Positions 1,352-18,121 of a stretch of 64,000 nt of DNA are shown here, piece after piece. Source of the DNA: Candidatus Omnitrophota bacterium (GTDB lineage Bacteria > Omnitrophota > Gorgyraeia > Zapsychrales > Fredricksoniimonadaceae); the NCBI GenBank assembly GCA_016201795.1, contig JACQCF010000002.1, positions 45,122-109,121 on the forward strand. Direction: 5' to 3'. The number at the start of each line of letters is the position of its first letter. Position 1 is the first letter of the stretch. A model generated the notes under the pieces. That model was not told where the DNA came from. It worked only from the letters and a program-made list of their open reading frames with translations, and searched no databases. The position numbers and the translations under genes are program-made.

Positions 1352-1374
1352 GACGTATTTATGGAAAAAAATAC

Positions 1375-2152: not shown

Positions 2153-3685
2153 ATGAAACAACTTGATGTTCTTTTTATCCATCCTAATACGGCCCAGCGC
2201 GTTTATCAGGACTTGGCCGTCCATTATTCGGCCATTGAACCGCCTATTTGGGCAGGGATGCTGGCAGGCCATTGCCGTCTCAAAAATTTTTCCGTCGATA
2301 TTTTAGATTGTGAAGCTTTATATTTAACGGATGAACAGGCCGCCCAACGCATTCAAGAAATTAATCCCCGTCTGGCTTGTTTTGTGGTGTATGGTCAACA
2401 GCCTTCCGCCAGTTCCCAAAACATGGAGGGGGCGACAACCCTGGCCGCTATGCTTAAAGATTATGCCCCGTCTATCAAGGTGCTTTTTGTCGGCGGGCAT
2501 GTGGCAGCCCTTGCGCGCGAGGTTTTGGAGAAACATAGTTCCATTGATTTTGTCTGCCAGAACGAAGGGGTCTATACCATTTCCAATTTATTGAAGACCA
2601 ATTTGAAAGACAAGTTGGATTTGGTGGATGGCTTAGGCTTTCGTGAGGAGGGCGGTATGGTGTTGAATAAACCCTCTCCCATTGTGGCTAAAGCAGATTT
2701 ATCCGTTGAACTGCCCGGCATCGCCTGGGATTTATTGCCGGTCAAGAATTACCGTACGGCGTTGTGGCATTCGTACTCTAACGTTTCCACTCGTCAGCTA
2801 TTTGCGGCCTTGTATACGAGCCTGGGCTGTCCCATGAAGTGTTCATTTTGCATGATCAATATCATCAATCGTCAGGAGAACGAGTTTTCCGACGGAAGCG
2901 CTGTGTTCCGTTATTGGGAACCAGAGCATATCATCAAACAGTTCGATTTCTTTGCCGAACAGGGCATTATTAATATTAAGATTGCCGATGAGCTTTTTGT
3001 CTTGAACCCCAATCATTTTATGAAACTTTGTCAGCTCATCATCGAACGCGGGTATAAATTTAATATTTGGTGTTACTCGCGGGTCGATACGGTGAAGGAT
3101 CATTATCTGGAGACGCTTAAAAAGGCCGGCGTGAATTGGCTGGCCTTAGGCATTGAAAGCGGTAATACGCGTGTGCGCAAGGATGTGACCAAGGGCCGTT
3201 TTGAAGATACGGACATCCGTAGTGTGGTCAATAAAATCCGTGAACACGGCATCAACGTGATCGGTAATTATATTTTTGGTCTGCCCGAAGACGATATGGC
3301 CAGTATGCAGATGACGTTGGATTTGGCCATGGATATGAACACCGAAGAAGCTAATTTTTATTCGGCCATGGCTTATCCGGGAAGCCCTCTTTACGGCATT
3401 GCTAAGAAAGAAGGGTGGAAACTGCCCTCAACTTATGTAGGATTCTCCCAGCACTCGTATTATACCCAGCCATTACCGACGAAGTATTTGACCGCCGAGC
3501 AGGTGCTGGCGTTTCGCGACGGGACATGGATGAAATATCACACGAGTCCTAAATTTTTAGCTCTTTTAAAGCAAAAGTTCGGCCAGGTGGCCGTTGATGA
3601 AACTTTGAAGTCCACTAAGATCAAATTAAAACGTAAAATTTTAGAGACGGAGAATATTCTACCCTCCCCTACAGGGATCAAATGA
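2153..3685 (+). CDS. B12-binding domain / radical SAM protein (class B radical SAM, putative methyltransferase)
   Basis: N-terminal flavodoxin-like B12-binding region followed by a CxxxCxxC cluster (GCPMKCSFCM). Total length is 510 aa. Confidence 0.7.
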   Translation: MKQLDVLFIHPNTAQRVYQDLAVHYSAIEPPIWAGMLAGHCRLKNFSVDILDCEALYLTDEQAAQRIQEINPRLACFVVYGQQPSASSQNMEGATTLAAMLKDYAPSIKVLFVGGHVAALAREVLEKHSSIDFVCQNEGVYTISNLLKTNLKDKLDLVDGLGFREEGGMVLNKPSPIVAKADLSVELPGIAWDLLPVKNYRTALWHSYSNVSTRQLFAALYTSLGCPMKCSFCMINIINRQENEFSDGSAVFRYWEPEHIIKQFDFFAEQGIINIKIADELFVLNPNHFMKLCQLIIERGYKFNIWCYSRVDTVKDHYLETLKKAGVNWLALGIESGNTRVRKDVTKGRFEDTDIRSVVNKIREHGINVIGNYIFGLPEDDMASMQMTLDLAMDMNTEEANFYSAMAYPGSPLYGIAKKEGWKLPSTYVGFSQHSYYTQPLPTKYLTAEQVLAFRDGTWMKYHTSPKFLALLKQKFGQVAVDETLKSTKIKLKRKILETENILPSPTGIK

Positions 3686-4680
3686 TCATTTCCCGCACGC
3701 CTTTCCGTGTATCTTTTTTCGGCGGGGGCACAGACTACAACGGTTGGTTTCAAGAGCATAAAGGGGCGGTGCTTGCGACCACCATTGACAAGTACTGCTA
3801 CATCACTTGCCGTTACCTGCCGCCTTTTTTTGAACACAAGTCGCGCATTATTTATTCCAAAATGGAGCATGTGCACGGCATTGATGATATTGATCACCCT
3901 TCCGTACGTGAGGTGTTGCGTTTTTTAAACATCAAAGAAGGCATTGAAATCCACCACGATGGGGACTTGCCCGCCCGCACGGGTTTAGGATCCAGTTCTT
4001 CGTTTACAGTCGGGCTTTTGAATTCGTTATATGCCCTTAAAGGTGCGATGGTCACCAAAGAGCGTTTAGCGACAGAAGCCATTGATATTGAGCAAAACAG
4101 GATTAAAGAAAATGTCGGCTGCCAGGACCAGACCTTGGCGGCGTACGGCGGTTTTAATTACATCGAATTCGGCGGCCCCAACCATTTACGCGTACAGCCT
4201 TTGACAATATCCACGGCGCAATTGAACCTGCTGCAGGAGCATTTGATGCTGTTTTTTACCGGTTTTTCGCGCTCTGCCTCGCAAATTGCGGCGCATCAGG
4301 TTAAAAATATTCCTCATAAAAAAGCCGAACTGAATCGTATGTATGAGATGACGCAGGAAGCGGTGCAAATTCTCAACAGCAATAATTTGTTGGCTTTCGG
4401 CCGGCTGCTGGGTGAAGGCTGGAAATTAAAACGGACTTTGTCGGATAAGATTTCCACCGCCCATATTGATGAACTTTATGAGGGCGCCATCCGTGCCGGT
4501 GCCATCGGCGGCAAGCTGCTGGGCGCTGGCGGCGGCGGGTTCGTGCTGTTATTCGTCGAGCCGCAGAGAAAGCCTAAAGTCCGCGAAGCCTTAAAAAATC
4601 TTCTGGAAGTTCCCATCAAATTCGAGAATTTAGGCAGTCAGATTATTTTCTATCAACCCGACAGCGGTCTTGTGAAATAA
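3682..4680 (+). CDS. hddA: GHMP kinase, D-glycero-alpha-D-manno-heptose 7-phosphate kinase-like
   Basis: N-terminal RTPFRVSFFGGGTDY and GHMP ATP-binding loop PARTGLGSSSSFTVG. Adjacent to a sugar-1-P nucleotidyltransferase. Confidence 0.7.
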   Translation: MIISRTPFRVSFFGGGTDYNGWFQEHKGAVLATTIDKYCYITCRYLPPFFEHKSRIIYSKMEHVHGIDDIDHPSVREVLRFLNIKEGIEIHHDGDLPARTGLGSSSSFTVGLLNSLYALKGAMVTKERLATEAIDIEQNRIKENVGCQDQTLAAYGGFNYIEFGGPNHLRVQPLTISTAQLNLLQEHLMLFFTGFSRSASQIAAHQVKNIPHKKAELNRMYEMTQEAVQILNSNNLLAFGRLLGEGWKLKRTLSDKISTAHIDELYEGAIRAGAIGGKLLGAGGGGFVLLFVEPQRKPKVREALKNLLEVPIKFENLGSQIIFYQPDSGLVK

Positions 4681-4682
4681 AT

Positions 4683-5387
4683 ATGTTTTCCGATGTGGTC
4701 ATTCTCTGCGGCGGTTTAGGCAAACGCCTTAAAGGCGTGACCGGCGGGGCGCAGAAAGTTTTAGCCAAAATCGACGGTAAACCGTTTATCAGCGTGTTGA
4801 TTGATTACATCGCCTCCCAGGGGGGCAAGCGTTTTATCTTGTGTACCGGTCATGATGCCCAGGGCGTGGTCAAGTCATTGAAAGGCGCGCATCCTGGTTT
4901 GACAATTGTATTCTCGAAGGAAGATGAACCTTTGGGTACTGGTGGAGCGATCAAAAAAGGAGCACGGTTAGTTAAGTCCAAGCAATTTATCGCCATGAAT
5001 GGGGATTGTTTTTGTATGATCGATTACAAGCAGCTTCTTGCGTACCATTTAAAGCAGCAGGCCAAGGCAACGCTGGCAGTGACTAAGCTCGATGATACCC
5101 ATGATTACGGCACCATTGAAATTGACACAAAGAAGCGCATTACCGCTTTTAAGGAAAAACAGTCGGGATTAGAAAGTGCGTTGGTTAATACCGGCACCTA
5201 TTGTTTTAATAAGGATGTATTTTCCTGGGTGGAAACCGAGGAGAAATTTTCCCTCGAATATGATTTTTTTCCTTATCTGGTGGAACAAGGTTTTTACGCA
5301 TTCGAAGTTGAAAATAAATTTATCGACATTGGCACGCCCGAGCGCTACGCGTGGGCGAAGGAGCATTTGAAAGGGTTATCGCGATGA
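4683..5387 (+). CDS. hddC: Sugar-1-phosphate nucleotidyltransferase, D-glycero-alpha-D-manno-heptose 1-phosphate guanylyltransferase-like
   Basis: N-terminal VVILCGGLGKRLKGVTGGAQKVL nucleotidyltransferase signature. About 234 aa. Follows hddA. Confidence 0.7.
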   Translation: MFSDVVILCGGLGKRLKGVTGGAQKVLAKIDGKPFISVLIDYIASQGGKRFILCTGHDAQGVVKSLKGAHPGLTIVFSKEDEPLGTGGAIKKGARLVKSKQFIAMNGDCFCMIDYKQLLAYHLKQQAKATLAVTKLDDTHDYGTIEIDTKKRITAFKEKQSGLESALVNTGTYCFNKDVFSWVETEEKFSLEYDFFPYLVEQGFYAFEVENKFIDIGTPERYAWAKEHLKGLSR

Positions 5388-6580
5388 AAGCAGCAGATTT
5401 TAATAAAGCCACGGCGGTTAACGACGGGCAGGAGGCCAAGAAAGCGGGCTATAAAGTTCCGTTCGGCACCGTGTCCATTACGGACAAAGCCAAGAAGCTT
5501 ATTGATGAGGCTATTGATCATCGCTGGCTGACCAAGGGCAAATACGTCAAAGAGTTTGAAGAGAAATTCGCCGCGCTTTTTGGCGTCAAATACGGCATTG
5601 CGGTTTCTTCAGGGACAGATGCGGATGCCATTGCCTGTGCGGTGCTTTATGATTTTGGCGCACAGCGTGCAGATGAAATTATCATCCCGGCATTGACGTT
5701 TGTGGCCACCGGTAATGCCGTGCTGCAGGCTGGGTTTAAGCCGGTGTTTGTGGATGTCAAACGCGAGACCCTCAACATTGATCCGGATAAGATCGAAGCC
5801 GCCATCACCAAACGCACGCGTGCCATCATGCCCGTGCATTTGATGGGTAAACCGGCGGATATGGACAAGATTGTGAGTATTGCCAAGAAGCACAAGTTGT
5901 ATGTCATCGAGGACGCCGCGGAAGCGCATGGGGCGCAATATAAGGGAAAGAAGATTGGCGCCATCGGGGAGATGGCCTGCTTCTCTTTATATGCGGCGCA
6001 TATCATCACCACCATCGAAGGCGGCATGATCATCACCAACAATGAGTCCATGGCCCAGGCGGCGCGATCTTTACGCAACCATGGTATCGACGGCAAATTT
6101 CGTTTCAAACGCATCGGGTTTTCCGCCAAGATGAATGAGCTCGAGGCTGCCGTGGGCTTGGGTAACATTGATATTTTTCACGATATATTGGAAAAACGCC
6201 GCCGTAACGTGCGTTATTTGATGAAGCAATTTGCAAGGTTTGAGAAATATTTCTGGTATCTGAAAGAAGACAGCCATGAGGTTTTAGGGCCGCACGCCTT
6301 TTCCATCATCGTCAAGCCTGGCCTTAATTTCACCAAAGACGAATTTGTGACCTTCCTCGAGAAAGAGGGAGTGGATTCACGCAATCTGTTCTATTCCATT
6401 CCTACCCAGACGGACAGTTATCAAGGAATGGGGTATAAACTCGGTGATTTTCCCCAAAGCGAATACTGTTCCGACCAGGGCACGCATATCGGCTGTCATC
6501 AGGACATCGAGCAGAACCAGCTGGATCATGTCGTCCTAACGGTTGAAAAATTCCTTAAATCTAAAGGCCATCAAGTTTAA
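5384..6580 (+). CDS. DegT/DnrJ/EryC1/StrS family PLP-dependent sugar aminotransferase
   Basis: DegT-fold motifs are present (GTDADAIA, MPVHLMGKPADMD, EDAAEAHGA). The likely start is MKAADF at 5384, in ATGA overlap with hddC. Confidence 0.75.
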   Translation: MKAADFNKATAVNDGQEAKKAGYKVPFGTVSITDKAKKLIDEAIDHRWLTKGKYVKEFEEKFAALFGVKYGIAVSSGTDADAIACAVLYDFGAQRADEIIIPALTFVATGNAVLQAGFKPVFVDVKRETLNIDPDKIEAAITKRTRAIMPVHLMGKPADMDKIVSIAKKHKLYVIEDAAEAHGAQYKGKKIGAIGEMACFSLYAAHIITTIEGGMIITNNESMAQAARSLRNHGIDGKFRFKRIGFSAKMNELEAAVGLGNIDIFHDILEKRRRNVRYLMKQFARFEKYFWYLKEDSHEVLGPHAFSIIVKPGLNFTKDEFVTFLEKEGVDSRNLFYSIPTQTDSYQGMGYKLGDFPQSEYCSDQGTHIGCHQDIEQNQLDHVVLTVEKFLKSKGHQV

Positions 6581-6583: not shown

Positions 6584-7714
6584 ATGCGCATTGCCATCAA
6601 TGCCCGATCGATTCTTCTTGCCAACCGTACCGGTATCGGACGCTACACTTATCATCTTTTAAACAGTTTTGGGCAGATCGACCAGCAGAATGAATATTGG
6701 CTTTATGCCCGAAAAAATTTTTTCGACCGCAAACGCCGTTGGCCGCAATTTTCTTATCCCCATTTTAAAGTCAGGGCTGATGTTTTAGGTCTTGGCCCAG
6801 ACCGTTGTCTTAAGGGGGTAGATATTTATCACGCCCCAAGCCCGGAGGCGCTGACGATCCACGGCCCTAAGATCGTCGTGACCATCCATGATTTGATTTA
6901 CAAAATCCACCCCGAAACACACACCCTAGAAACGATTGAAGCCACCAGCCGGCAGATGGAGGGGATCATCAAGTTTGCCGATAGGATCATCTGTGTTTCT
7001 GGGAGCACCCGCCGTGACCTGCACCGGTTTTTTGGTTTACCTCAGGAAAAAAGTTGTATGATTTATAATGGTGTTGATCACAGCGTATTTTATCCGTTGC
7101 AGCCCGACGAGCGGCGTGCGGCTATGGACCGATTGAGGGGTTTGGGTATAAAGACACCTTATCTGCTTTACGTGGGAACTATTGAGCCTAGAAAAAATTT
7201 AACCGGTTTGCTCAAAAGCTTTGCTTTGTTAAAATCAAAAAAAGATTTCGCGGGTCAATTGGTGGTGGCGGGGATGAAAGGCTGGATGATGGCCGCGGTG
7301 GCGCCAATGATCAAGGAGTTGGGACTCAGGGATGAGGTGATTTTCACCGGTTTTGTCAGCGATGCGCAGCTGCGTGAATTGTACAATTTGGCCGAGGCGT
7401 TTGTCTTTCCGTCGCTGTATGAGGGGTTTGGTTTTCCCATTGTGGAAGCATTTTGCTGCGGGACGCCGGTGGTGACCTCTAACACGTCCTCCTGCGCAGA
7501 AATTGCGGGGGGCTGTGCTCTGACGGTAGATCCTCGACAAGTACCGCAAATAGCTCAGGCGATTCAACGGTTATTAGAAGACCGTGTGTTTAACCAAGAA
7601 TTGCGCCAAAAAGCCATCAAGAAAGCCCAGGAATTTTCTTTCCTGAAAACTGCCCAAGAAACCCTAAAAGTTTATGAACAGTTGGCTCCCTTGAAGGAGA
7701 GAGCTCATGCATAA
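6584..7714 (+). CDS. Family 4 glycosyltransferase (GT-B, retaining)
   Basis: C-terminal EX7E motif region FVFPSLYEGFGFPIVEAFCCGTPVV. Confidence 0.75.
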   Translation: MRIAINARSILLANRTGIGRYTYHLLNSFGQIDQQNEYWLYARKNFFDRKRRWPQFSYPHFKVRADVLGLGPDRCLKGVDIYHAPSPEALTIHGPKIVVTIHDLIYKIHPETHTLETIEATSRQMEGIIKFADRIICVSGSTRRDLHRFFGLPQEKSCMIYNGVDHSVFYPLQPDERRAAMDRLRGLGIKTPYLLYVGTIEPRKNLTGLLKSFALLKSKKDFAGQLVVAGMKGWMMAAVAPMIKELGLRDEVIFTGFVSDAQLRELYNLAEAFVFPSLYEGFGFPIVEAFCCGTPVVTSNTSSCAEIAGGCALTVDPRQVPQIAQAIQRLLEDRVFNQELRQKAIKKAQEFSFLKTAQETLKVYEQLAPLKERAHA

Positions 7715-9380
7715 TTTTTTAACACGATCACCGCGATGGACCGATGCCCTGATCTTAATTATTTTTACCATATTACTGACCATCCATCCCTATTACCTGA
7801 ATAACCGTATCAATGTGTTTGAATTGGGTATCTATTTGCCCGGTATCAATGCTATTTTGCACAGCATGGTACCTTTCAGGGACTTTTTCCATTTACGTGG
7901 GCCGCTGGAACTTTATGCACCGGTTTGGTTGATGAAAATATTCGGTGTCCATATGCAGGTCCTGTGTGCCTATTTTTATGTCGGTAATGTTTTGTGTTTG
8001 GTCATGATTGTTTTGATCGCCCGCGAGTTTATCCGTTCCAGGTATATCTTCTATATGATGATTCCCGTCATCATTGCCCGTACTTATCCCCGGGTAGTTT
8101 TTATGATCTGGGGAGGCATGCGTTATGCATTCGGATTGATGGCCATTTTTTGTTTGATCAAATTCTTAAAGAGCCGGCGATTATGGTGGATGGCGGGCGC
8201 AGGCCTCATGAGCGCATGGGCCGGATTAATCAGTATCGAAATGGGAGTTTATACGGTAGCTGCCATCCTGGGATGTCTTTTGGTTGCCTGGGTGGGGCGT
8301 TTCAAACCATCGGAAGAAACCGGGCGTGGTTTTATTTATTTTATAGGAGGAGGATTTTTAGGACTCGCTCCTTGGGTCATTTACAGCTTACAACAGCACG
8401 CTTTCCTTCCTTATTTGGATGCGGTGATGGCGGTGGTGGGCCCTAAATCATCGGTGCTCGATTCGCATTTGGTTTCTATTTATCCGCATAATTTTCCCGA
8501 AGCTTTCGCAGCCATGATTAATCCCGTCCATATCAATTTCAGGCACATGACACCTTCTTATACGTATTTATTCCTCTTAGGTTATTTGATTGTCCGATGG
8601 CGCAAAGGAGGGCGGGAGCCATGTGAACTTGGTCTTTGGGGCTTAGGGATTTACGGTTTTATTATGTACAATACCGCTTTTCGTGCCATCTGGGCTGCCC
8701 AATTTGAAATGGCTCTCATGCCCGAGAAGGTCATTTATTTCTTTTTAGTAGAAGCATTCGTTTTATGGTTATGGAGCAAAAGAGAGGCAGCGCCTGATTG
8801 GGGCAGATCCCTTATTTATATCTTTGTGATGGGATTATTCATTTTTTCTTGCGCCTACACCTTGCAGCGGTACCATAAACGCTTTTGGTCCTATCAATAC
8901 ACCCTTAATACTTTGACGGGCAAAAACAATGATTATCTCAAACGTTGGGATAAGCATGAACAATATGGTCAATTAAACATAGAGCGGGCCCGGGGAATCT
9001 GGGTTCCCGTTGATCAATATAATGACTTGAATCAAATATCCAATTTTATTACTCAAAAGACCAGTCCTGATGATGTCATTATGATGTTTCCGGAACTGGG
9101 GACGTACAACTTTTTATTTGACCGTCCCTTTTTGGGCCGTTTCCCCATTGTGACATTCACCTGGTTTAATGACCATTGGTTTGAGGAATACCTCGGCGAC
9201 CTCAAGTCTTTGAAAACCAATTACATCATTGTGCAGAAACGTATGCCCGAGGATTGGTACAAAGTATATCTGGGATATGCACCTAACAAAATTAAATATC
9301 AACAAATGCTAGAGACTATTCATCGTTTTTACGTACCTGTGGCCCAGACAGAGGCAACCTGGATTTATCAAAGGAAATGA
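7707..9380 (+). CDS. Large polytopic membrane protein, putative GT-C-type lipid-linked sugar transferase (paralog A)
   Basis: More than 10 predicted TM helices, a conserved acidic first loop (VPFRDFFHLRGP) and a roughly 170-aa C-terminal soluble domain. Clear paralogy with 10932-12623. Confidence 0.45.
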   Translation: MHNFLTRSPRWTDALILIIFTILLTIHPYYLNNRINVFELGIYLPGINAILHSMVPFRDFFHLRGPLELYAPVWLMKIFGVHMQVLCAYFYVGNVLCLVMIVLIAREFIRSRYIFYMMIPVIIARTYPRVVFMIWGGMRYAFGLMAIFCLIKFLKSRRLWWMAGAGLMSAWAGLISIEMGVYTVAAILGCLLVAWVGRFKPSEETGRGFIYFIGGGFLGLAPWVIYSLQQHAFLPYLDAVMAVVGPKSSVLDSHLVSIYPHNFPEAFAAMINPVHINFRHMTPSYTYLFLLGYLIVRWRKGGREPCELGLWGLGIYGFIMYNTAFRAIWAAQFEMALMPEKVIYFFLVEAFVLWLWSKREAAPDWGRSLIYIFVMGLFIFSCAYTLQRYHKRFWSYQYTLNTLTGKNNDYLKRWDKHEQYGQLNIERARGIWVPVDQYNDLNQISNFITQKTSPDDVIMMFPELGTYNFLFDRPFLGRFPIVTFTWFNDHWFEEYLGDLKSLKTNYIIVQKRMPEDWYKVYLGYAPNKIKYQQMLETIHRFYVPVAQTEATWIYQRK

Positions 9381-10099
9381 GCATGAGTAAAATTTGGTCT
9401 AAGCGCGTTTATAAAATGCACGGGTTTTTCAATTACGTGTATTCACTTTTGATGCTGCGTTACACTGCGTTCAATCTTTCCTTGTTGCACCGCCGGCTGG
9501 AGTGTGCCATTGACCGCATGCATATCGGCTGCGGTGACGTCATTCTCGATGGTTGGTTGAATGTGTTATATGAACGCAGGCAGGAATACGATCGTCTTAT
9601 AAAAAAAGGCCGCGGCTGGTTTTTGAATTATGATTTGCTTAAGGCCTGGCCGGTCAAAGACAATAGCCTTGCCTTTGTGGCTGGCAGCCATGTGATTGAG
9701 CATTTGGATTTAAATGATGGGCTGAGGCTGGTTCAACAGGCTTATCAAGCGCTCAAAGGCGGCGGCGTCATCCGTTTAAGCTGCCCCGATATGGAAATAT
9801 ATGCGCGCCATTATTTAGCCAGGGACGAAGCTTTCTTTAATCATCCTTTAATTCGTGAATGGTGTACGTTCAAGGCTGCCGAAACACATGGTCAAATTTT
9901 TATGGCTAAAGCCTATGACAGCGGCGGGGCACATAAATGGTTTTATGATTATGAGTCTTTAAAAAATATCCTTGAACGTGCCGGTTTTGTTGAGGTCAAA
10001 AAAGTTGGACACCTGCAAGGGGCAATGCCTGATTTGCCGCTTCTTGAGCCGGCGGCACGTGAACTGGAAACCGTTTATGTGGAGGCCGTCAAACGTTGA
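9377..10099 (+). CDS. Class I SAM-dependent methyltransferase (type 11-like)
   Basis: HIGCG...GSHVIEHLD motif pattern typical of Methyltransf_11/23. ATGA overlap with the upstream membrane protein. Confidence 0.6.
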   Translation: MSMSKIWSKRVYKMHGFFNYVYSLLMLRYTAFNLSLLHRRLECAIDRMHIGCGDVILDGWLNVLYERRQEYDRLIKKGRGWFLNYDLLKAWPVKDNSLAFVAGSHVIEHLDLNDGLRLVQQAYQALKGGGVIRLSCPDMEIYARHYLARDEAFFNHPLIREWCTFKAAETHGQIFMAKAYDSGGAHKWFYDYESLKNILERAGFVEVKKVGHLQGAMPDLPLLEPAARELETVYVEAVKR

Positions 10100-10935
10100 A
10101 AGTCAGCGCCTTTACCATTGTCCGCAACGCGGTCAAGTTCCATTACCCCATCGCTCAGTCCATACAATCGATTTTGCCCATTTGCGATGAATTTATCGTC
10201 AATGTGGGCGATAGCGAGGATAGAACGCTGGATTTGATCCGCTCCATCCCAAGCTCCAAAATTCGTATTATCCAAACCCAATGGAATATGAGGAAGGGCT
10301 CGATGGTCCTTTCCGAACAGACCAACATCGCCCTGAAAGAATGCAGAGGGGATTGGGCATTTTATCTGCAAAGCGATGAGGTGATCCACGAAAATGATTT
10401 GTCGCGCTTGAAGCAATGGATGCAGCGTTTCTTGAAAGTTGACGGAGTGGATGCCTTGCGTTTTAAATGGCTGCATTTTTACGGTAGTTATTGGCGCTAC
10501 CGCATTGATGCGGGGTGGTATCAGAAACAAGACCGTATTATCCGTAACAACGGCCAGATCGAATCCTATGGGGATGCGTTTGCGTTTAGGCGTCGTGACG
10601 GGCGGCCGCTATGCAGCCGGCCAACGGGGTGTTTATTGTACCATTACGGCTGGGTCAATACCGTCGAAGATATGAAGGGCCGCTGCCATAATGCGGCGCA
10701 AATCGGTTATCAGGATGCAAACAAATTACAATCGTTGGAAGGCGGTTGGGGAGACTTGAGCCGTTTCCCGGCGTATTTTGGTACGCATCCATTGGTCATG
10801 AAGGACTTGATTGCCAGGCATGCCCTCAGCGTGCAGGATTGGGCAAGTGTCAGCCGTCAATTTTGGTGGAACCCTCTGTTTTGGATGCGCCTGCGGCACA
10901 AGACATCCCGGCGTATCAGAGAGAAAATCACATGA
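10096..10935 (+). CDS. Putative GT-A fold glycosyltransferase (GT2-like)
   Basis: N-terminal FTIVRNA...IVNVGDSED resembles GT2 N-termini. A weak call. Confidence 0.4.
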   Translation: MKVSAFTIVRNAVKFHYPIAQSIQSILPICDEFIVNVGDSEDRTLDLIRSIPSSKIRIIQTQWNMRKGSMVLSEQTNIALKECRGDWAFYLQSDEVIHENDLSRLKQWMQRFLKVDGVDALRFKWLHFYGSYWRYRIDAGWYQKQDRIIRNNGQIESYGDAFAFRRRDGRPLCSRPTGCLLYHYGWVNTVEDMKGRCHNAAQIGYQDANKLQSLEGGWGDLSRFPAYFGTHPLVMKDLIARHALSVQDWASVSRQFWWNPLFWMRLRHKTSRRIREKIT

Positions 10936-12623
10936 GGGAAAATTTCTTTTTTAAAAAACCAACCGGTTGGGACGTGTTGGCCATGGCACTTTTGGTGGTC
11001 TTTGTCACATACCAGCCGTTTTATATGCAGCATGAGATTATCATGATGGAAACCGGTATTCATCTGCCGGCGATTAACGCGTTGTTTCATGGGTTGGTGC
11101 CATACCGTGATTTCTTTTTCTTGCGTGGGCCAATAGAACTTTATATACCTGCGGTCATGATGAAAATTTTTGGCGTTAATTCCGCCCTACTGCCGGCATT
11201 TTATTATGGAGGAACTATTCTGACCCTTATTTTATGCGTGATACTTGCCGGTGAGTTGTTTCGTTCACGTTTGATTCTTTATACCATGGTTCCGGTTTTT
11301 GTGGCCCGCACTTTCCCACGGATTGCTTATTATTATTGGGGAGGACTGCGTTACGCTATGGGGTTTTTGGTGCTATTGTTCCTGTTTTATTTTTTCAAAA
11401 CCCAGCGTCGCCGTTGGATTTTTTTAACGGGTATGATGTGCGCCTTATCCGCACTGACCACACCGGAGGCGGGGCTTTCCACAGTTTTAGCAGTGCTTGC
11501 GGCGTTGGTGTGTGCTTTTGGTTTTCAAGTCTGTGACCGGCATTTTCTGTGGCGATGTTTTTGGGTTTTTTGTGCCGGTTTCGCAATCGTCATTGTTCCT
11601 TATGTGGTGTATTTGATTCAAACCGGTTCTTTTCATGCATTGGTGGAGTCGACGTATGTGGTGGTAACACTCATGGTTGATGCGTTTCCAGGCGCTGCGG
11701 GCATTAAACCTGAAACACCTCTGCAGTTTTTAGTGGCCTGCATTCCTGGAACAAAATTTTTTAAATACATGAGTGTGCTGTGGTGCTATCTATTCTTTGC
11801 GGTGTTCTTGTGGTATAAAGCTCGTTATAAAAAGCTGGATTGGGTACACGCATTTCTGATAGGAGTTGCCGTTTATGGCTTGGTATTGTACGCGGCGGCG
11901 TTTCGTAAAATTGAAGGCCATCATTTTGAGATGGCCCTGCAGGTGGAGAAATTTATTTATTTCTTTTTGATGGAATGCGCCATACTGTATATGTGGACGC
12001 GGTGGGCAACGCTTCATATTACCTTTGCGTGGCGCCGGCGATTAGTTTATGGTATGGCCATGGGGGTATTCCTTTCTTCGGTCGCCTACGCGTTGAATAG
12101 ATTTGACCACCGTTTCACGATGATGAAGCTCATTGAGAGACAAGTTTTGCATAAAAAGAAAGTGAAAGGTTTATCAGTGCTGGAGGGTCAGGAAACTGCC
12201 GTTTTGAACATTGAGCGGGCCCGTGGCCATATTGTGCCCCGCTGGCAGGAAGAGGAGATCAAAGGGGTAGTTGAATTTTTAAAAATGCACACCCGCACTG
12301 ATGAAGCGGTTTTTTGCTTTCCTGAATTGGGGAATTTTAATTTTTGGGCGGATCGGCCCTTTGTCGGCCGTTTTCCGATTGTCACATTTACTTGGATGTA
12401 TGAGCCCTGGTATCAGGAACTTTTGGCGGATTTTCAAAAAACCAGGCCGCATTACGTGGTGATGACGCATTTAGGCCACCGGACTTTTCCGCAACTTTGG
12501 TATTTTCGTAATCCGCAAAACCAAGAGCGTTTTGAGCAAATGACACAGCTCATTTTAGCCAATTATGCGCCGGTCCAGTCATTTGAGTCGGTAGCCATTT
12601 ATGAACGCAAGGACAGGAGATGA
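10932..12623 (+). CDS. Large polytopic membrane protein, putative GT-C-type transferase (paralog B)
   Basis: The same architecture and conserved blocks as 7707-9380 (GIHLPAINALFHGLVPYRDFFFLRGPIELY; C-terminal FPELGNFNFWADRPFVGRFPIVTFTW). The start is placed at the internal ATG (MRENFFF) in ATGA overlap with the upstream stop, because the 5' extension of the ORF overlaps the preceding gene. Confidence 0.45.
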   Translation: MRENFFFKKPTGWDVLAMALLVVFVTYQPFYMQHEIIMMETGIHLPAINALFHGLVPYRDFFFLRGPIELYIPAVMMKIFGVNSALLPAFYYGGTILTLILCVILAGELFRSRLILYTMVPVFVARTFPRIAYYYWGGLRYAMGFLVLLFLFYFFKTQRRRWIFLTGMMCALSALTTPEAGLSTVLAVLAALVCAFGFQVCDRHFLWRCFWVFCAGFAIVIVPYVVYLIQTGSFHALVESTYVVVTLMVDAFPGAAGIKPETPLQFLVACIPGTKFFKYMSVLWCYLFFAVFLWYKARYKKLDWVHAFLIGVAVYGLVLYAAAFRKIEGHHFEMALQVEKFIYFFLMECAILYMWTRWATLHITFAWRRRLVYGMAMGVFLSSVAYALNRFDHRFTMMKLIERQVLHKKKVKGLSVLEGQETAVLNIERARGHIVPRWQEEEIKGVVEFLKMHTRTDEAVFCFPELGNFNFWADRPFVGRFPIVTFTWMYEPWYQELLADFQKTRPHYVVMTHLGHRTFPQLWYFRNPQNQERFEQMTQLILANYAPVQSFESVAIYERKDRR

Positions 12624-13237
12624 ACATGAAATTGCATGTGGGCTGTGGGACTAATAAAATACCCGGGTGGGTCAATATCGACGCTGTTGAAAGCTGCCAG
12701 CCCGATCTTATCCATGATTTAAGCAAGCCCCTGCCTTACCCCGATTTGTCAGCGGACGAGCTCAGGGCTGAGAGCGTTCTGGAACATTTCGACAAATACA
12801 TGAGGTATTGCGTGTGCAGTGACTGGGTAAGGGTGTTGAAGGTAGGAGGGTTTATCCATATAGGCGTGCCGGATTTCAAAAAGCTGCTGTTTCGTTTTTT
12901 TAAATTCCGTTTTGATGATTTCGTCGACACTTTTTTCGGCGAGAATATGTGGGAGTCAGAAATTTATATCGGGCATTTCGGCAATCATAAATGGGGGTAT
13001 TCACAAAAGTCCTTAACGGCATTTCTGGGGCAATTCGGCATTGAACCGGTGGAGGTCAAAACCATAGGGTTAAATATTCATTTTGTAGGTCGTAAACTTA
13101 AGCATGTGTCCACCCGGGACATGGACCAGTGGAAGATTTATTCTCATAACAACAAATTCGGCGCACCCCGTCATTACCTGACGTTCGCCGAGGTTAAAGC
13201 GAAAATCAATGAGTTTCAGAAAGATTCTGCTTATTAA
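12620..13237 (+). CDS. Class I SAM-dependent methyltransferase
   Basis: HVGCG...ESVLEHFD motifs. Paralogous in position and motif to 9377-10099. Confidence 0.6.
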   Translation: MNMKLHVGCGTNKIPGWVNIDAVESCQPDLIHDLSKPLPYPDLSADELRAESVLEHFDKYMRYCVCSDWVRVLKVGGFIHIGVPDFKKLLFRFFKFRFDDFVDTFFGENMWESEIYIGHFGNHKWGYSQKSLTAFLGQFGIEPVEVKTIGLNIHFVGRKLKHVSTRDMDQWKIYSHNNKFGAPRHYLTFAEVKAKINEFQKDSAY

Positions 13238-14261
13238 TCCTTACGGCATCGGGGATGTGTTGTTTACCACTCCCGTTGTGGGCAATTTGCGTAAAAGCTA
13301 TCCGCAGGCTTTTATTGGCTATATCGCTAACCGTCGGGCTTTGCCGGTGGTGGAAAGCAATCCCAAAATCAATCACGTTTATGTGTATGAGCGTGATGAA
13401 TTTAAGGACGATTTTGTCCGTCGCTGGGTGAGTCTTTTTCAAGATATACGACGACAAAAATTCGATGTTGTTTTTGATTTCTCTTTGAATGCTTCCTTTG
13501 GATTTTTGAGCATGATTTGCGGCATAAGCAAGCGTATTGGTTATGATTACCGAGGTCGGGGCTGGCTTTTAACGGATAAAATTCGGTTAGAAGGCTATGA
13601 AGCAAAGCATGTGGTGGAATATTATCTGGATTTATTGACGAAACTTGACGTACCGGTGCAAGATCGCTCTTTGGAGTTTTTGATTGACCAGCAACATCAG
13701 CAATGGGCTAAAGATTGGATTAAAACCAAAGGGATTTCATCCAATCAACCAATCATTGCCCTCATCCCTGGCGGGGGAGCCAGCTGGGGCAAGGATGCCA
13801 GCCAGAAACGCTGGCCCGCCGGGCAATACGCGCTTTTGGTGGATAAAATTATTGCAAAATCAAACAGCGCCGTTATACTGATGGGCGATCAAAAAGAGCA
13901 GTTGTTGTGTCAAGAATTTGCCCGCCGATGCTCTTATCCCGTCTTTGATGCGGTTGGAGGTACAACCCTTTTGCAGATGGCTGCCTTACTGCAACAATGC
14001 CGTCTGGCGATTGTTAATGACGGAGGACCTTTGCATGTGGCGGTGGCGTGCGGTGTCAAGACGGTTTCTATCTTTGGTCCGGTGGATCCGGTGGTTTACG
14101 GCCCCTACCCATCGTCGGGACATATTTTTATTCAAAAAGGACTGCCTTGCCAGCCGTGTTACCGTCAGTTTCGCCGGGCCGCCTGTAACCATATCAGCTG
14201 TTTGAGGGACTTATCAGTCGATGAGGTTTACGATAAAGTAGAGAGATTTTTAGTTGATTGA
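13209..14261 (+). CDS. GT9 family heptosyltransferase (ADP/GDP-heptose:glycan heptosyltransferase)
   Basis: N-terminal KILLINPYGIGDVLFTTPV and C-terminal GNDGGPLHVAVACGVKTVSIFG motifs of RfaF/WaaC-like enzymes. Confidence 0.75.
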   Translation: MSFRKILLINPYGIGDVLFTTPVVGNLRKSYPQAFIGYIANRRALPVVESNPKINHVYVYERDEFKDDFVRRWVSLFQDIRRQKFDVVFDFSLNASFGFLSMICGISKRIGYDYRGRGWLLTDKIRLEGYEAKHVVEYYLDLLTKLDVPVQDRSLEFLIDQQHQQWAKDWIKTKGISSNQPIIALIPGGGASWGKDASQKRWPAGQYALLVDKIIAKSNSAVILMGDQKEQLLCQEFARRCSYPVFDAVGGTTLLQMAALLQQCRLAIVNDGGPLHVAVACGVKTVSIFGPVDPVVYGPYPSSGHIFIQKGLPCQPCYRQFRRAACNHISCLRDLSVDEVYDKVERFLVD

Positions 14262-14302: not shown

Positions 14303-15403
14303 ATGAGCGTTCCGTTTATTGATTTTAAAGAACAACACCGCCTGATCCAAAACGAGGTGGATACGGGTTTTAAAAAAGTTTTTGAAAAAGGCGATTATAT
14401 TTTAGGCGAGCAAGCTGTTATCTTCGAGGGCGCTTTTGCTAAATATTGCGATTGTGCTTATGGGGTGGGTGTCAATTCCGGTACCGACGCGTTGTATTTG
14501 GCCCTTTGCGCATTGGATATTGGCCCAGGTGATGAAGTGATTGTGCCTACCTTCACTTTTATTGCTACGGCATTGTGCGTTTCGTTTTGCGGTGCTCAAG
14601 CGGTGTTCGTCGACGTTGAGCCGGATACTTACAACATTGACCCTCAGGCATTCGCCAGGGCCATTACCAAGAAAACTAAAGCGGTGATTCCAGTGCACAT
14701 CTATGGTCAGCCGGCGAACATGAATGAAATCTCTGCCATTGCCCGCAAGCACGATATTAAGGTGGTTGAGGATGCAGCTCAGGCCCATGGTTCGCGTTAT
14801 CAGGGCAAGCGCGCGGGATCCCTGGGGGATGTGGCGTGTTTCTCTTTTTATCCGACCAAAAGTCTGGGCGCTTGCGGGGATGCCGGAATGATTGTCACCA
14901 ACGACAAGGCGATTTATCAGAAGGCGCTGATGCTGCGCGATTACGGCAGAAAGGGCCGTTATGAACATAAGATTAAAGGGCATAATTCCCGTCTGGATAC
15001 TCTGCAAGCGGTGGTGCTCAATGCCAAATTAAAACATCTGGATGCATGGAATACTTTACGCGCCCAAAACGCTGTTTATTACAATGAGCTTCTTAAAGGC
15101 GTCAAAGGCGTGGTCACGTCGGTTGTCAAAAGTGACCGTACCCACGTTTATCAGACGTATGCCGTGCGGGTGGCCAACCGCGATAAGGTCATGGAAGGGA
15201 TGAAGGCCAAAGGAATCAGCGTCCTTATCCATTATCCGATTCCTCTACACCTTCAGGAAGCCTATCAAGAGTTAGGTTATCAAAAAGGAGCTTTTCCCTT
15301 CGCGGAAGCCGTGGCTGATGAGATCATGTCTTTGCCGATGTTTCCTCACATGAGCAGGGAGCAAATTGAAACCGTGGTGAGGGCTTTGAAAGAATCTTTA
15401 TGA
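14303..15403 (+). CDS. DegT/DnrJ/EryC1/StrS family aminotransferase
   Basis: GTDALYLAL, VPTFTFIAT, EDAAQAHGS and the Lys-containing FSFYPTKSLGA motif. Confidence 0.8.
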   Translation: MSVPFIDFKEQHRLIQNEVDTGFKKVFEKGDYILGEQAVIFEGAFAKYCDCAYGVGVNSGTDALYLALCALDIGPGDEVIVPTFTFIATALCVSFCGAQAVFVDVEPDTYNIDPQAFARAITKKTKAVIPVHIYGQPANMNEISAIARKHDIKVVEDAAQAHGSRYQGKRAGSLGDVACFSFYPTKSLGACGDAGMIVTNDKAIYQKALMLRDYGRKGRYEHKIKGHNSRLDTLQAVVLNAKLKHLDAWNTLRAQNAVYYNELLKGVKGVVTSVVKSDRTHVYQTYAVRVANRDKVMEGMKAKGISVLIHYPIPLHLQEAYQELGYQKGAFPFAEAVADEIMSLPMFPHMSREQIETVVRALKESL

Positions 15404-16752
15404 ACAAGGCTTTGCATATTTGCGACAGGTTGATGTACGGCGCTTTGCTGGTGCTGGTAATTTTTATTCCCTATTCGCTGGCCATGATCGAAGCATGTCT
15501 GTTGACGATAATACTAGCTTGGGTACTGAAACATTGGTTATTATGGAAAGCCAATCCACAACGAGGATTTTGGGCGGCCTATCGTTTTTCGCCCAGCGGG
15601 ATGGAATGGCCCTTAATCGTCATAGGGTTTCTCATCGTTGCGACCTTACCGTGGAGTCATGCTCCTGCTTTGAGTTTAAAGAAATTCTTCTCAAGGTTTC
15701 TGCAGCAGGCATTTTTGATGTATGCCGTCGTTGAGATTGTCAAGACCCATCGGCGTTTATACGGGGTCATGGCAACCTTATTGCTGACGCTTTTTGTGGT
15801 CAATGCGGATATTTTTGTGCAGTATATGCGAGGCTACAGTTTTATTTATCATACCCCGCTGACGTCTGGGCGGGTGTTGGGGCCGATGCATCACCCCAAT
15901 GATTTGGGGACGTTGCTGGTGATGGTGTTGCCTGTGGTGTTGGCTTTGATCATCACACACCGTTATTGGATTCCATTGTTATGGTCTCGTGCGACGCAGG
16001 TGTCCCGTGGCTTATGCACCATGGGGACGGTGGCGGAGGTGGTGTTGTTTTTACTATTGGTCATCGCGCTTGGGTTAACGGCTTCGCGGGGGGCATGGAT
16101 AGCTTTTGCGGTGAGCATGGTTGGCCTAGGCGTTTGTTTGAAACGGTATTGGTCAACTGTTTTACTTATTTTGATGCTGGTTGTGGTATTTTGGGTCTTT
16201 TGGGGACATAGCCTGCATCAGCGTCATGATATTCAAGATGTTTCTTTAGGAACTCAGACTAAGTACAGCAGTATAAGCCTATCTCCCCAGTATGAGAAGA
16301 GTCTGTTGGTTTTTTTCAATCCTTCGGGCCGGTATTTCTATTGGGAAACAGCTTGGGATATTATTAAACGTTATCCGCTGTTTGGCTGCGGCTATAGCGC
16401 TTATGTCCAGACGCTCAATGTTTTGAAGGCGGGGCACGCGGAATATCCTCACAATATCTTATTGCATATTACGGCGGAACTTGGTCTCTTTGGTTTGCTG
16501 GCGCATCTATGGTTTTTTACAGCTTTATATTTATGTGCTAGGAGAGTGTTGCGTGCGGTTTTCTCTGCCTATGATTTGTATATACTCGGATGCGGGATAT
16601 GTTTTGGACTTTTGGCGTGGATAATCCATAGTCTGACAGATACGGCTTGGACATCTTTGCAGTTGAGCATCTTATGGTGGTTATTGATAGGGATTTTGTT
16701 GAGCCTTGTCTCTGTTTTTCATCAATCAACATCGCCACGGGGAGGTTCCTAG
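15400..16752 (+). CDS. O-antigen ligase / Wzy-like polymerase family membrane protein
   Basis: Multi-TM protein with the O-antigen ligase domain signature (GRYFYWETAW...YPHNILLHITAELGLFGLL). Confidence 0.7.
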   Translation: MNKALHICDRLMYGALLVLVIFIPYSLAMIEACLLTIILAWVLKHWLLWKANPQRGFWAAYRFSPSGMEWPLIVIGFLIVATLPWSHAPALSLKKFFSRFLQQAFLMYAVVEIVKTHRRLYGVMATLLLTLFVVNADIFVQYMRGYSFIYHTPLTSGRVLGPMHHPNDLGTLLVMVLPVVLALIITHRYWIPLLWSRATQVSRGLCTMGTVAEVVLFLLLVIALGLTASRGAWIAFAVSMVGLGVCLKRYWSTVLLILMLVVVFWVFWGHSLHQRHDIQDVSLGTQTKYSSISLSPQYEKSLLVFFNPSGRYFYWETAWDIIKRYPLFGCGYSAYVQTLNVLKAGHAEYPHNILLHITAELGLFGLLAHLWFFTALYLCARRVLRAVFSAYDLYILGCGICFGLLAWIIHSLTDTAWTSLQLSILWWLLIGILLSLVSVFHQSTSPRGGS

Positions 16753-17537: not shown

Positions 17538-18121
17538 AAGTAGTTTTTCTTGACAGAGACGGCGTGATTAACGAATTTCCGGGTAAAGACAATTACGTGA
17601 CGAAAGTCAAAGACTTTCATTTTATTCCCGGAGCGGCGGAAGCCATCGCGCGCCTCAGCCAGGCAGGATATAAGATTTTTGTGATTTCTAATCAGGCTGG
17701 CGTGGGTAAAGGGGTTTATTCGCTGGACAAACTCAATCGTATCAACCGTTATATGATGAAGCATGTTGAGGCTGCCGGCGGAGAAATCCGAAAAAGTTTT
17801 TACTGCACCCACCGCGCCGATGCGGGCTGCGACTGCCGCAAGCCAGGCATAGGTCTTTTAAAGAAGGCGCTTCAATCTCTCAATAAAACCATTGCCCATG
17901 CGCAAAAGGCTTTTTTCGTTGGTGATACCGAAGGCGATATTAAAACCGGCCATAATGCCGGATGCAAAACGGTTTTTGTGCTTTGTGGGCGTGAAAGCCG
18001 CCGGCATATGCGTCAATGGCACATCAAGCCCGATTTTATCGCTTCGGATTTAAAAACCGCGGTTGACATTATCCAACATGAAAATTCTGGTCATTCACGC
18101 CACAGCAGGGGCCGGGCATAA
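17534..18121 (+). CDS. gmhB: D-glycero-D-manno-heptose 1,7-bisphosphate phosphatase (HAD-IIIA)
   Basis: FLDRDGVIN HAD motif I, and GVGKG plus the C-rich zinc site CDCRKPG typical of GmhB. Confidence 0.75.
   Translation: MKVVFLDRDGVINEFPGKDNYVTKVKDFHFIPGAAEAIARLSQAGYKIFVISNQAGVGKGVYSLDKLNRINRYMMKHVEAAGGEIRKSFYCTHRADAGCDCRKPGIGLLKKALQSLNKTIAHAQKAFFVGDTEGDIKTGHNAGCKTVFVLCGRESRRHMRQWHIKPDFIASDLKTAVDIIQHENSGHSRHSRGRA

Follow-up and report, generated by a model that had tools for sequence, protein, structure and literature searches.

In three-component systems (GtrA/GtrB/GtrC and the GT136 pentofuranose systems), a GT2 enzyme produces a polyprenyl-phosphate sugar that a GT-C enzyme adds extracytoplasmically to an envelope glycan, and the lipid-linked donor can be modified by additional enzymes prior to its export (PMC11127046). 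For Haloferax volcanii, the published account of Agl N-glycosylation lists the SAM methyltransferase AglP with the enzymes that process sugars as the pentasaccharide is assembled, and describes AglS as a Dol-P-mannose-dependent, outside-facing enzyme that adds the final sugar (PMC3871713). Searches of the literature yielded nothing characterising the envelope chemistry or LPS glycosyltransferases of the Omnitrophota, and nothing specific on the pairing of GT-C enzymes with methyltransferases. The Omnitrophota are ultra-small bacteria of wide distribution, most of which have not been cultured. From the analysis of a 64,000-nucleotide stretch of DNA from this phylum (the window), it is proposed that two membrane proteins encoded there, A and B, represent a new GT-C family, as judged from predicted structure, with a clade-specific methyltransferase partner, MT-A.

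A (557 aa) and B (563 aa) are encoded on the forward (+) strand at 7707-9380 and 10932-12623, respectively. Their paralogy, claimed in an earlier note on this DNA, was borne out by an end-to-end alignment (36% identity, E 9e-118), as was the conservation of both an acidic first-loop motif (VPFRDFFHLRGP / VPYRDFFFLRGP) and a C-terminal block, FPELG..NF..DRPF.GRFP..TF.W. Of the lengths given there, about 560-625 aa, the 625 aa for B would require initiation at an upstream TTG (10746) that overlaps the adjacent GT2 gene and finds no support in the alignment with A; the ATG start, and hence 563 aa, is consequently preferred. The two fall within separate old clades of a single neighbour-joining tree constructed without support values, B being an old paralog of A that retains all of the invariant residues of the family. 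Given the predicted fold, A and B are regarded as two anciently diverged paralogs of one uncharacterised GT-C family of the GT-C_A type (ArnT/PMT/STT3-like).

Topology prediction returned the arrangement that had been claimed: 11 transmembrane (TM) helices and a C-terminal domain placed in the periplasm, of the alpha/beta type in A, with acidic residues carried by the first outer loop. The cytoplasmic loops of the family are rich in Lys and Arg, and it was from these alternating loops that the periplasmic location of the loop spanning residues 25-82, immediately after TM1, was deduced. This loop contains helices at 37-51 and 67-79; an acidic residue in an extracytoplasmic loop following TM1, together with short helices, is a hallmark of GT-C_A enzymes, and E39 and D59 are the candidate catalytic residues. 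The other GT-C_A hallmark, a polytopic domain with approximately 7-13 TM helices and a structure superposable on those of known GT-C enzymes, was found with the predicted structure. The resemblance to GT-C enzymes suggested in the earlier note was recovered by this structure comparison, in which the top matches of the family were catalytic enzymes of the GT-C type and the matches included 6p2r_A/B (Pmt1-Pmt2) and 7bvf_A (EmbA-EmbB); A and B are accordingly modelled as having a GT-C fold. In an alignment of 35 family members, E39, D59, R64, R139, E334, K341 and R392 are invariant, with D59, R64, R473 and W491 each present in 35 of 35. Among the 79 GT-C genes of related loci, D59 and R139 are found in every member of all subclades, E39 in 78, and R64, E334, K341 and R392 in 77-78. 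The outer loops beyond the first carry conserved arginines and one lysine.

Neither A nor B matched any Pfam (E <= 0.1) or NCBIfam model, including that of ArnT (GT83), and comparison of A alone and of the 35-member profile with PDB chains revealed nothing relevant, the lone match being to a kinase fragment (E 0.54). An hhalign comparison of the family profile with Escherichia coli ArnT (NC_000913.3) was not significant (Prob 1.1); equivalences to the ArnT motifs DEXRYAE/YFEKP are therefore not established, and assignment to the GT-C enzymes rests on predicted structure. The gathering threshold of Pfam PMT_2 (PF13231) was not reached by A or B; 16 of the 35 relatives match this model at E <= 1, with P0018 alone exceeding the threshold (27.1 vs 26.1 bits; residues 74-229, profile positions 3-153 of 160). 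Identity as an oligosaccharyltransferase (PglB/AglB/STT3; GT66) was rejected for lack of the WWDYG motif, neither WWD nor WW[DE].G being present in any of the 35 members. The family comprises 198 cluster representatives at E <= 1e-30, annotated as 'hypothetical', and it has so far been seen only in the Omnitrophota, the patterns used for the genome scan having been drawn from the family itself.

The genes for A and B lie within an operon that is conserved across the Omnitrophota beside priA and which, from its gene content, appears to be of an LPS-core-like, heptose/GT9 type. HddA-like heptose-7-phosphate kinase and HddC-like nucleotidyltransferase genes (3682-5387, +; NCBIfam E-values of 2.9e-46 and 1.1e-43, both below cut-offs) show 63-86% identity to those in the nearest syntenic loci and 43-75% in more distant ones. 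A GT9 heptosyltransferase is encoded at 13209-14261 (+; NCBIfam LPS heptosyltransferase II, 145.3 bits against a cut-off of 134.6; Glyco_transf_9, 1.8e-35), and a GmhB-like heptose bisphosphate phosphatase at 17534-18121 (+; PRK08942, 1.7e-47, its 161 bits being below the NCBIfam cut-off of 178). Together, the HddA-, HddC- and GmhB-like genes represent a heptose-nucleotide pathway. Two DegT-type sugar aminotransferases occupy 5351-6580 (+; Pfam DegT, 3.4e-106; 58-86% identical in syntenic loci) and 14303-15403 (+; Pfam DegT, 5.3e-123), while a Wzy_C-domain membrane protein of the O-antigen ligase/polymerase type is found at 15400-16752 (+; Pfam Wzy_C, 1e-21); in a second type of context, Wzy_C genes flank the A and MT-A pair. 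Immediately upstream of A, with an overlap of 8 nt, is a GT4 glycosyltransferase gene (6584-7714, +; Glycos_transf_1, 5.8e-37), and this order is kept in L001, L007, L008, L041, L047 and L057 of the related loci. The GT2-like gene that had been noted between the two GT-C/methyltransferase pairs, GT2m (10096-10935, +), is indeed a PF00535 member (32.6 vs 23.3 bits) lacking a TM segment; it encodes a soluble enzyme and neighbours the GT-C genes more constantly than any other gene of the conserved operon, adjoining them in L007, L008, L022, L041, L045, L047, L050, L057, L058 and L059.

It could be argued that A and B glycosylate periplasmic or surface proteins, as PMT-like O-mannosyltransferases or OST/DPY19-like enzymes, and not lipid A-core or polysaccharide; this is considered unlikely. 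It is very improbable that they are not sugar transferases at all but glycan polymerases or glycan ligases, or else scaffold subunits like PIGU/GAB1 of the GPI transamidase, with the methyltransferases as unrelated passengers: the conservation of E39, D59, R64, R139, E334, K341 and R392 is as expected of an active site, the top structural matches are catalytic, and ligation or polymerisation could fall to the Wzy_C proteins, which are encoded separately.

The earlier note had also pointed to two Dpm1-like GT2 genes as possible sources of a lipid-linked donor. The first of these (1375-2097, +), a candidate polyprenyl-phosphate sugar synthase of the Dpm1/AglJ-like type, has polyprenyl-phosphate hexose synthases as its best NCBIfam matches (AglJ, 9.4e-24; Dol-P-hexose transferase, 1.5e-12; ArnC, 4.2e-7), all below curated cut-offs, and for the second (55603-56370) the sole match was to PgfS (8e-11); neither has a TM segment. 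The gene at 1375-2097 is 5.6 kb upstream of A and its type is absent from many syntenic loci, and in L011 an ortholog (79% identical) immediately precedes a GT-C gene of the family. The use of a lipid-phosphate-linked sugar donor by the A/B family may be indicated, indirectly, by the conserved Arg and Lys residues of the outer loops, together with the presence of an AglJ/Dpm1-like GT2 gene both in the operon and beside the L011 member. Of the 57 ORFs called in the window at a minimum length of 80 aa, all but one of 94 aa were scanned for families, and no flippase of the GtrA, SMR (ArnE/F-type) or MATE type was found. A 122-aa ORF (24111-24479) was dismissed as a flippase, having no family match and being unlike GtrA. 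An ABC exporter of the MsbA/PglK/HepA type is encoded at 37794-39602, and the gene for a flippase may lie in another part of the genome.

Each GT-C gene was claimed to be followed by one for a class I SAM methyltransferase, and this was upheld by Pfam and fold for MT-A (9377-10099, +) and by homology to MT-A for MT-B (12620-13237, +). MT-A matches Methyltransf_23 (28.4 bits, threshold 27), its glycine-rich motif I (G51-C52-G53) is invariant or almost so, and its AF2 model (pLDDT 92.7) adopts the Rossmann fold of class I methyltransferases. Its profile identified 1vlm in the PDB (3e-8), and Foldseek returned only class I methyltransferases with TM-scores <= 0.5 (Coq5, phosphoethanolamine methyltransferases, CmoA, TM1293); such matches being generic, assignment of a substrate from structure was rejected. 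MT-B shares 26% identity (E 7e-10) and an HVGCG motif with MT-A; it scores beneath Pfam thresholds (17.2 vs 21.2), with PF08241 carried by its relatives. Homologs of MT-B number 377 at E <= 0.001, the best 120 of which are 57-100% identical. SAM is cytoplasmic, whereas the active sites of GT-C enzymes face the periplasm, and no TM segment was predicted in MT-A or MT-B; neither could thus modify a periplasmic product, which leaves no way for the GT-C step to be succeeded by methylation on the same side. The idea that an N-terminal helix anchors MT-A amphipathically to the membrane was discounted, since the hydrophobic moment of this helix does not exceed that of other parts of the protein. This separation of compartments had been overlooked in the earlier note.

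The gene order in the window had been read as a tandem duplication of a GT-C plus methyltransferase unit, with a methyltransferase dedicated to each transferase and two methylated decorations of the glycan as the outcome. In keeping with this, the A/MT-A and B/MT-B genes do overlap as had been claimed, each pair by 4 nt (ATGA), MT-A and MT-B are distant homologs, and in L052 a gene of the MT-B type is directly upstream of a B-type GT-C gene. However, the same type of overlap is found at most junctions of the operon and so is not specific to these pairs. Moreover, when the genes of the window were compared by blastp with 80 related loci, in which 79 related GT-C genes were counted, an MT-A-type gene was directly downstream of 12, nearly all in the A clade, but an MT-B-type gene was downstream of none, with no case among the B-clade genes; the proposed co-occurrence was thereby seen for A with MT-A and not for B with MT-B. 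Homologs of MT-B with 61-80% identity instead precede GT9 genes, follow Wzy_C genes, or reside among housekeeping genes, with no GT-C neighbour in any of the five loci sampled, contrary to the notion of a dedicated methyltransferase for each transferase. The conserved junction is that of MT-B with GT9, its 29-nt overlap being identical in the window, L006 and one of the sampled MT-B homolog loci. The order in the close relatives L001 and L053 is MT-A-B-GT2, whereas that of the window is MT-A-GT2-B, and it is by this swap of B and GT2 that B came to adjoin MT-B. Judged by these genomic contexts, the tandem reading is largely refuted and highly unlikely. A possible third pair of a large protein and a methyltransferase (50107-52416) was set aside, since the protein in question (536 aa) is soluble and bears no relationship to A.

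What gene neighbourhoods indicate to be conserved is a unit of A, B and MT-A, and not two copies of a GT-C gene with a methyltransferase. B-type genes accompany the A and MT-A pair in L001, L004, L010, L014, L015, L018 and L052; L053 has MT-A followed by B at the start of its contig, and L086 likely has the same arrangement. Approached from MT-A, a GT-C gene was within a few genes in all three loci looked up, and for 22 of 49 MT-A homologs on contigs >= 5 kb, the contig was equal in size to that of a listed GT-C homolog. Among the related loci, B-type genes were found only beside A-type genes, and A-type genes often occur without B. Close orthologs of A in L007, L008 and L022 have no MT-A, which is therefore dispensable for A. 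From the same kind of evidence, MT-B is placed in a different, widely distributed methyltransferase family of the Omnitrophota tied to GT9 and Wzy_C steps. The apparent repeat illustrates the trap of a single locus, in which local gene order is mistaken for conserved design.

Taken together, A and B probably function as GT-C paralogs of a conserved envelope operon that, with MT-A as part of their unit, transfer sugars from polyprenyl phosphate to an envelope glycolipid. A Dpm1/AglJ-like GT2 enzyme, such as that encoded at 1375-2097, would synthesise the donor on the cytoplasmic side, and a transporter would then flip it across the membrane. At the periplasmic face, each GT-C enzyme would move the sugar from this donor to a glycolipid of the LPS-core or O-antigen type, A acting first or alone and B adding a further sugar or working with A. 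Since SAM is confined to the cytoplasm, MT-A most likely acts prior to export and not on the periplasmic product, and it may methylate a nucleotide- or lipid-linked donor, or a lipid-linked acceptor. A more elaborate proposal, for which the chances appear small, is that of a four-part periplasmic 'methyl-glycosylation' system in which the polyprenyl-phosphate sugar is methylated by MT-A at the cytoplasmic face, much as lipid-linked donors are tailored by ArnD or DprE1/E2, and is then flipped, and O-methyl (or N-methyl amino) sugars are installed on the Omnitrophota LPS core by A and B, possibly as a heterodimer by analogy with Pmt1-Pmt2; if true, it would constitute an undescribed route to methylated envelope glycans, and A and B would found a new CAZy GT-C family. 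The family as defined is one that current Pfam and NCBIfam models miss; it is a standing member of an LPS-core-like operon that extends across the phylum, and one of its clades has a specific methyltransferase partner. Should the biochemistry be confirmed, it would represent a new glycosyltransferase family and possibly a new means by which methylated sugars reach the outer side of the membrane.

Compared to known systems, the A/B family has no detectable sequence homology to ArnT (GT83), which transfers 4-amino-4-deoxy-L-arabinose to lipid A in the arn/pmr pathway, and has 11 predicted TM helices to the 13 of ArnT. Unlike ArnT, the family is present in multiple copies per genome, with a distinctive motif at the C-terminus and a methyltransferase partner. 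Genes for an ArnA formyltransferase(-decarboxylase), an ArnD deformylase and an ArnE/F SMR flippase are lacking from the operon, where a scan for arn partners gave only weak ArnB-, ArnC- and ArnA-like matches far below cut-offs. Paralogous GT-C enzymes act together in Pmt1-Pmt2 and EmbA-EmbB, and A and B are likewise encoded together; unlike these heteromeric pairs, A-type genes often stand without B. AglP shows that there is precedent for a methyltransferase within a glycan pathway that uses a lipid carrier and has an outside-facing reaction as its last step. With the Agl pathway (AglJ, AglP, AglD/AglR/AglS), a further parallel is that the best NCBIfam match of the GT2 at 1375-2097 is to the AglJ-type polyprenyl-phosphate GT2. 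Methylation by AglP reportedly takes place on the cytoplasmic side, with the glycan still attached to its lipid. The Agl pathway belongs to an archaeon and glycosylates protein, and its likeness to A, B and MT-A is one of pathway logic only. It is the logic of the three-component systems that is proposed for A and B, which have the features of the GT-C component. Those systems have a dedicated flippase and none was found in the window; also unlike them, the candidate donor GT2 is 5.6 kb from A and missing from many syntenic loci. Whereas the serotype-converting Gtr systems are accessory, the GT-C enzymes described here are constant members of a core operon shared across the phylum and, unlike in those systems, two paralogous GT-C genes and a methyltransferase gene travel together.

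A and B, the paralogous polytopic membrane proteins of the window, are encoded on the plus strand at 7707-9380 (557 aa) and 10932-12623 (563 aa counted from ATG), respectively, and lie with two methyltransferase genes in a single operon of tightly packed genes. Counted from an upstream TTG, the ORF of B has 625 aa; the extra stretch runs over the preceding gene and is not covered by the alignment with A. The two proteins match over their full length (36% identity, E 9e-118), confirming the paralogy proposed in an earlier note made from sequence alone, and the motifs quoted there were found in both; D59, R64, R473 and W491 are invariant in an alignment of the family (n=35). As also described in that note, a class I SAM methyltransferase gene directly follows each membrane protein, MT-A (9377-10099, plus strand) after A and MT-B (12620-13237, plus strand) after B, each with a 4-nt ATGA overlap, and a GT2 gene (10096-10935) separates the two pairs. 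MT-A passes the Pfam Methyltransf_23 threshold (28.4 vs 27 bits); MT-B is sub-threshold in Pfam and homologous to MT-A (26% identity, E 7e-10). Short overlaps recur at the majority of gene junctions in this operon (rSAM/GHMP, GT4/A, MT-A/GT2, GT2/B, DegT2/Wzy_C and others), and hence the ATGA overlap denotes no special link between transferase and methyltransferase.

Searches of A and B against Pfam, NCBIfam and PDB sequences returned no match, and A is annotated by NCBI as a hypothetical protein of Candidatus Omnitrophica bacterium. An AlphaFold2 model of A, for which 35 homologs served as input, was confident (pLDDT 90.3, pTM 0.89). The first 33 Foldseek hits of this model were all GT-C enzymes, as the earlier note had anticipated, with STT3 and DPY19 ranking above ArnT; at the level of the predicted structure, the GT-C fold of A is thus settled and its nearest family is not. 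A faint sequence link to Pfam PMT_2 was observed, with 16 of 35 relatives matching at E <= 1 and a single one (P0018) above the gathering threshold, there covering nearly the whole profile. An hhalign comparison with Escherichia coli ArnT was not significant, and the OST motif WWDYG is absent from the family. The model has 11 TM helices and a C-terminal alpha/beta domain of about residues 393-557. Its short loops on alternate sides are rich in K/R, indicating a cytoplasmic N-terminus and consequently a periplasmic position for both the C-terminal domain and the loop that follows TM1, in agreement with the topology proposed previously. When residue conservation was counted in 79 family members drawn from all subclades, E39 (78/79), D59 (79/79) and R64 (78/79) stood out in the first outer loop, and R139 (79/79), E334 (77/79), K341 (77/79) and R392 (78/79) in other outer loop sequence. 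Such a pattern would be expected for an active GT-C site with a lipid-phosphate donor. That A and B are GT-C glycosyltransferases is very probable.

The arrangement in the window had been read as a GT-C and methyltransferase module duplicated in tandem, with a methyltransferase dedicated to each transferase. This reading failed across the family: among 79 related GT-C genes followed by 700 bp or more of sequence, the next gene was of the MT-A type in 12 and of the MT-B type in none (0/79), such that the conspicuous "twice-repeated module" does not reflect a conserved design. In a rough neighbor-joining tree of the GT-Cs, constructed without support values, A and B fell into separate clades with orthologs of each in other genomes, and the duplication is therefore older than these lineages. 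Nearly all of the MT-A-linked GT-Cs were placed within the A clade in this tree. The B-clade genes, in every informative locus, had the pair of A and MT-A alongside. Among these related loci of other genomes, the order is A-MT-A-B in L001 and L015, B-A-MT-A in L004, L014 (with a gap) and L018, and MT-B-B-A-MT-A in L052, while L010 has a partial B upstream of A-MT-A and L053 has MT-A-B at a contig start; A-clade genes without B occur in L005, L007, L008 and L022. Approached from the other side, of 49 MT-A homologs whose contigs reach 5 kb or more, 22 lay on a contig equal in length to that of a listed GT-C homolog, and in all three independent look-ups from MT-A a family GT-C lay a few genes away at most. 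Two further loci, L086:1563-5726 and L002:8001-9749, occupy one and the same position in the chromosome, with GGDEF on one side and the GH57, CSD, PrmA and RF-1 genes on the other. At this site, L086 encodes two proteins in tandem (571 and 554 aa) that lack a Pfam match and are probable family GT-Cs, together with MT-A, most likely in the order B-A-MT-A, whereas the otherwise syntenic L002 has one GT-C and no methyltransferase. This comparison suggests that the extra GT-C and MT-A were gained or lost together as a unit. As judged from gene order, the conserved unit is the triad of A, B and MT-A. In another Omnitrophota genome (L087:1313-4992), the family GT-C and MT-A are separated by an inserted glycan O-acylation cassette, consisting of an MBOAT acyltransferase gene flanked by two genes for GDSL-type esterases.

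The family of MT-B is larger, with 377 homologs at E <= 0.001, the best 120 of which are 57-100% identical. In five look-ups of these homologs, MT-B was located after Wzy_C beside unrelated genes (L082, L088), amid housekeeping genes (L083, L084), and directly in front of GT9 in a core operon lacking any nearby GT-C. An identical 29-nt overlap joins MT-B to GT9 in the window, in L006 and in one further locus from these look-ups. The closest relatives have MT-A-B-GT2, followed by GT9 in L001 and by MT-B in L053; with the order MT-A-GT2-B-MT-B-GT9 in the window, a local exchange of positions between B and GT2 accounts for the adjacency of B and MT-B there. Taken together, the full statement, comprising GT-C enzymes, the triad and an independent MT-B, is favored with some reserve.

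Comparison by blastp of the window genes with all ORFs of the related loci revealed a phylum-wide operon with the following order (variable genes in parentheses): SDR epimerase, (Dpm1-like GT2), B12-radical SAM, HddA-like kinase, HddC-like nucleotidyltransferase, DegT, GT4, GT-C, (MT-A), GT2, (B), (MT-B), GT9, DegT, (Wzy_C), GT2, GmhB-like phosphatase, GT28 and priA. The GT9 exceeds the NCBIfam cut-off for LPS heptosyltransferase II, and the best matches of the kinase, nucleotidyltransferase and phosphatase are to the heptose-nucleotide pathway; the operon would appear to be an assembly line of the LPS-inner-core type. A second recurrent context consists of Wzy_C, epimerases, Wzy_C, (B), A and MT-A, and many family members are solitary, outside both contexts. 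The B12-binding radical SAM protein (2153-3685, plus strand), which is 74-83% identical in most syntenic-operon loci and about 40% in a few, has HpnJ as its best NCBIfam match (5e-41, far under cut-off) and may catalyze an unusual sugar modification, e.g., C-methylation or ring rearrangement. In L001, the closest syntenic relative, the nucleotidyltransferase and DegT genes of the conserved glycan operon are separated by an inserted gene for a 1274-aa RHS/YD-repeat (toxin-type) protein (1373-5197).

When 1.84 billion cluster representatives were searched with a profile, 198 proteins scored E <= 1e-30, and the number rose to 717 at E <= 1e-10; the named homologs are all from Omnitrophota. The 75 loci from GTDB species genomes, retrieved with scan patterns derived from the GT-C family itself so that absence from other phyla is not proven, are likewise all from Omnitrophota save for MAGs labeled "uncultured Planctomycetales," which share the operon at protein identities reaching about 85% to the window genes, a few loci labeled only "bacterium," and one short contig labeled "Tangfeifania." The "uncultured Planctomycetales" MAGs are TPA assemblies (L007, L008, L018, L040, L044 and others) carrying the Omnitrophota operon, and their labels are probably imprecise.

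Elsewhere in the window, a complete-looking pseudaminic acid pathway (39625-47356, plus strand) includes PseB (482.7 vs 407.75 bits) and PseI (463 vs 340 bits), both above NCBIfam cut-offs, accompanied by DegT aminotransferases, a cytidylyltransferase and GNAT acetyltransferases, with an MsbA/HepA/PglK-like ABC exporter upstream (37794-39602). Directly downstream of fmt are two tandem paralogous genes for galactose-1-phosphate uridylyltransferase-like (HIT-type) proteins (22084-24072, plus strand). One unbroken ORF of 1480 aa (24594-29036, plus strand) combines an entire RND pump of the AcrB type (Pfam ACR_tran, residues 5-1025, E 1.7e-221) with a TolC-like outer-membrane efflux protein domain (OEP in two stretches, the best at residues 1285-1463, E 7e-43); an inner-membrane pump and outer-membrane channel as a single polypeptide is unusual, and could reflect either a genuine fusion or the loss of a stop codon. 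The methyltransferase content of the window is unusually high: a second glycan island encodes paralogous sugar C-methyltransferases of the Methyltransf_13/23/14 type (53403-54668 and 58346-59560, plus strand), with further methyltransferases beside them (49369-50103, 51721-52416 and 57487-58359).

The model of MT-A (pLDDT 92.7) has the class I Rossmann methyltransferase fold, and its structural likeness is to generic class I enzymes only (Coq5, phosphoethanolamine methyltransferases, CmoA and TM1293; TM-scores <= 0.5), so no substrate can be read from it. TM segments were found in neither MT-A nor MT-B, and the amphipathic character of the N-terminal helices of MT-A is not notable. Since the cofactor SAM resides in the cytoplasm and the active sites of GT-Cs are directed to the outside, the methyl group must be added before export. 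The substrate could be a nucleotide sugar, a polyprenyl-phosphate-linked donor, or a lipid-linked acceptor built in the cytoplasm, though methylation of a lipid-linked donor by MT-A is considered unlikely. Two precedents are known for such a step. The methyltransferase AglP reportedly acts on a lipid-linked glycan at the cytoplasmic face. It is the SAM-dependent methyltransferase in the Agl pathway of Haloferax, which likewise employs a GT2 of the AglJ type and, facing outside, the Dol-P-Man transferase AglS (PMC3871713). In three-component systems, lipid-linked donors are tailored ahead of export (PMC11127046).

In the pathway proposed here, a Dpm1/AglJ-like GT2, for which the gene at 1375-2097 is the candidate, would load a sugar onto polyprenyl phosphate; an ortholog of this gene abuts a family GT-C in L011. 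Given the DegT, methyltransferase and B12-radical SAM genes, the donor sugar may be aminated or methylated, and it would be exported by a flippase. A, together with B where present, would then transfer the sugar to a heptose-containing core or O-antigen-type glycolipid at the periplasmic face. B might extend the product of A, or pair with A in the manner of Pmt1-Pmt2 and EmbA-EmbB, and MT-A would methylate a substrate used specifically in the reaction of the A clade.

Glycan operons with many glycosyltransferases and methyltransferases are common; the GT-C family and the triad merit characterization, though they are not startling to a specialist. The closest functional likeness of A and B is to ArnT and to the Gtr/GT136-type three-component systems. 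A and B are accompanied by neither an identifiable flippase nor arn accessory genes, and sequence tests place them outside GT83, GT66 and Pfam PMT_2. The most apt description is that of a new GT-C_A-fold family at the sequence level, with a methyltransferase that partners one clade and a co-traveling paralog.
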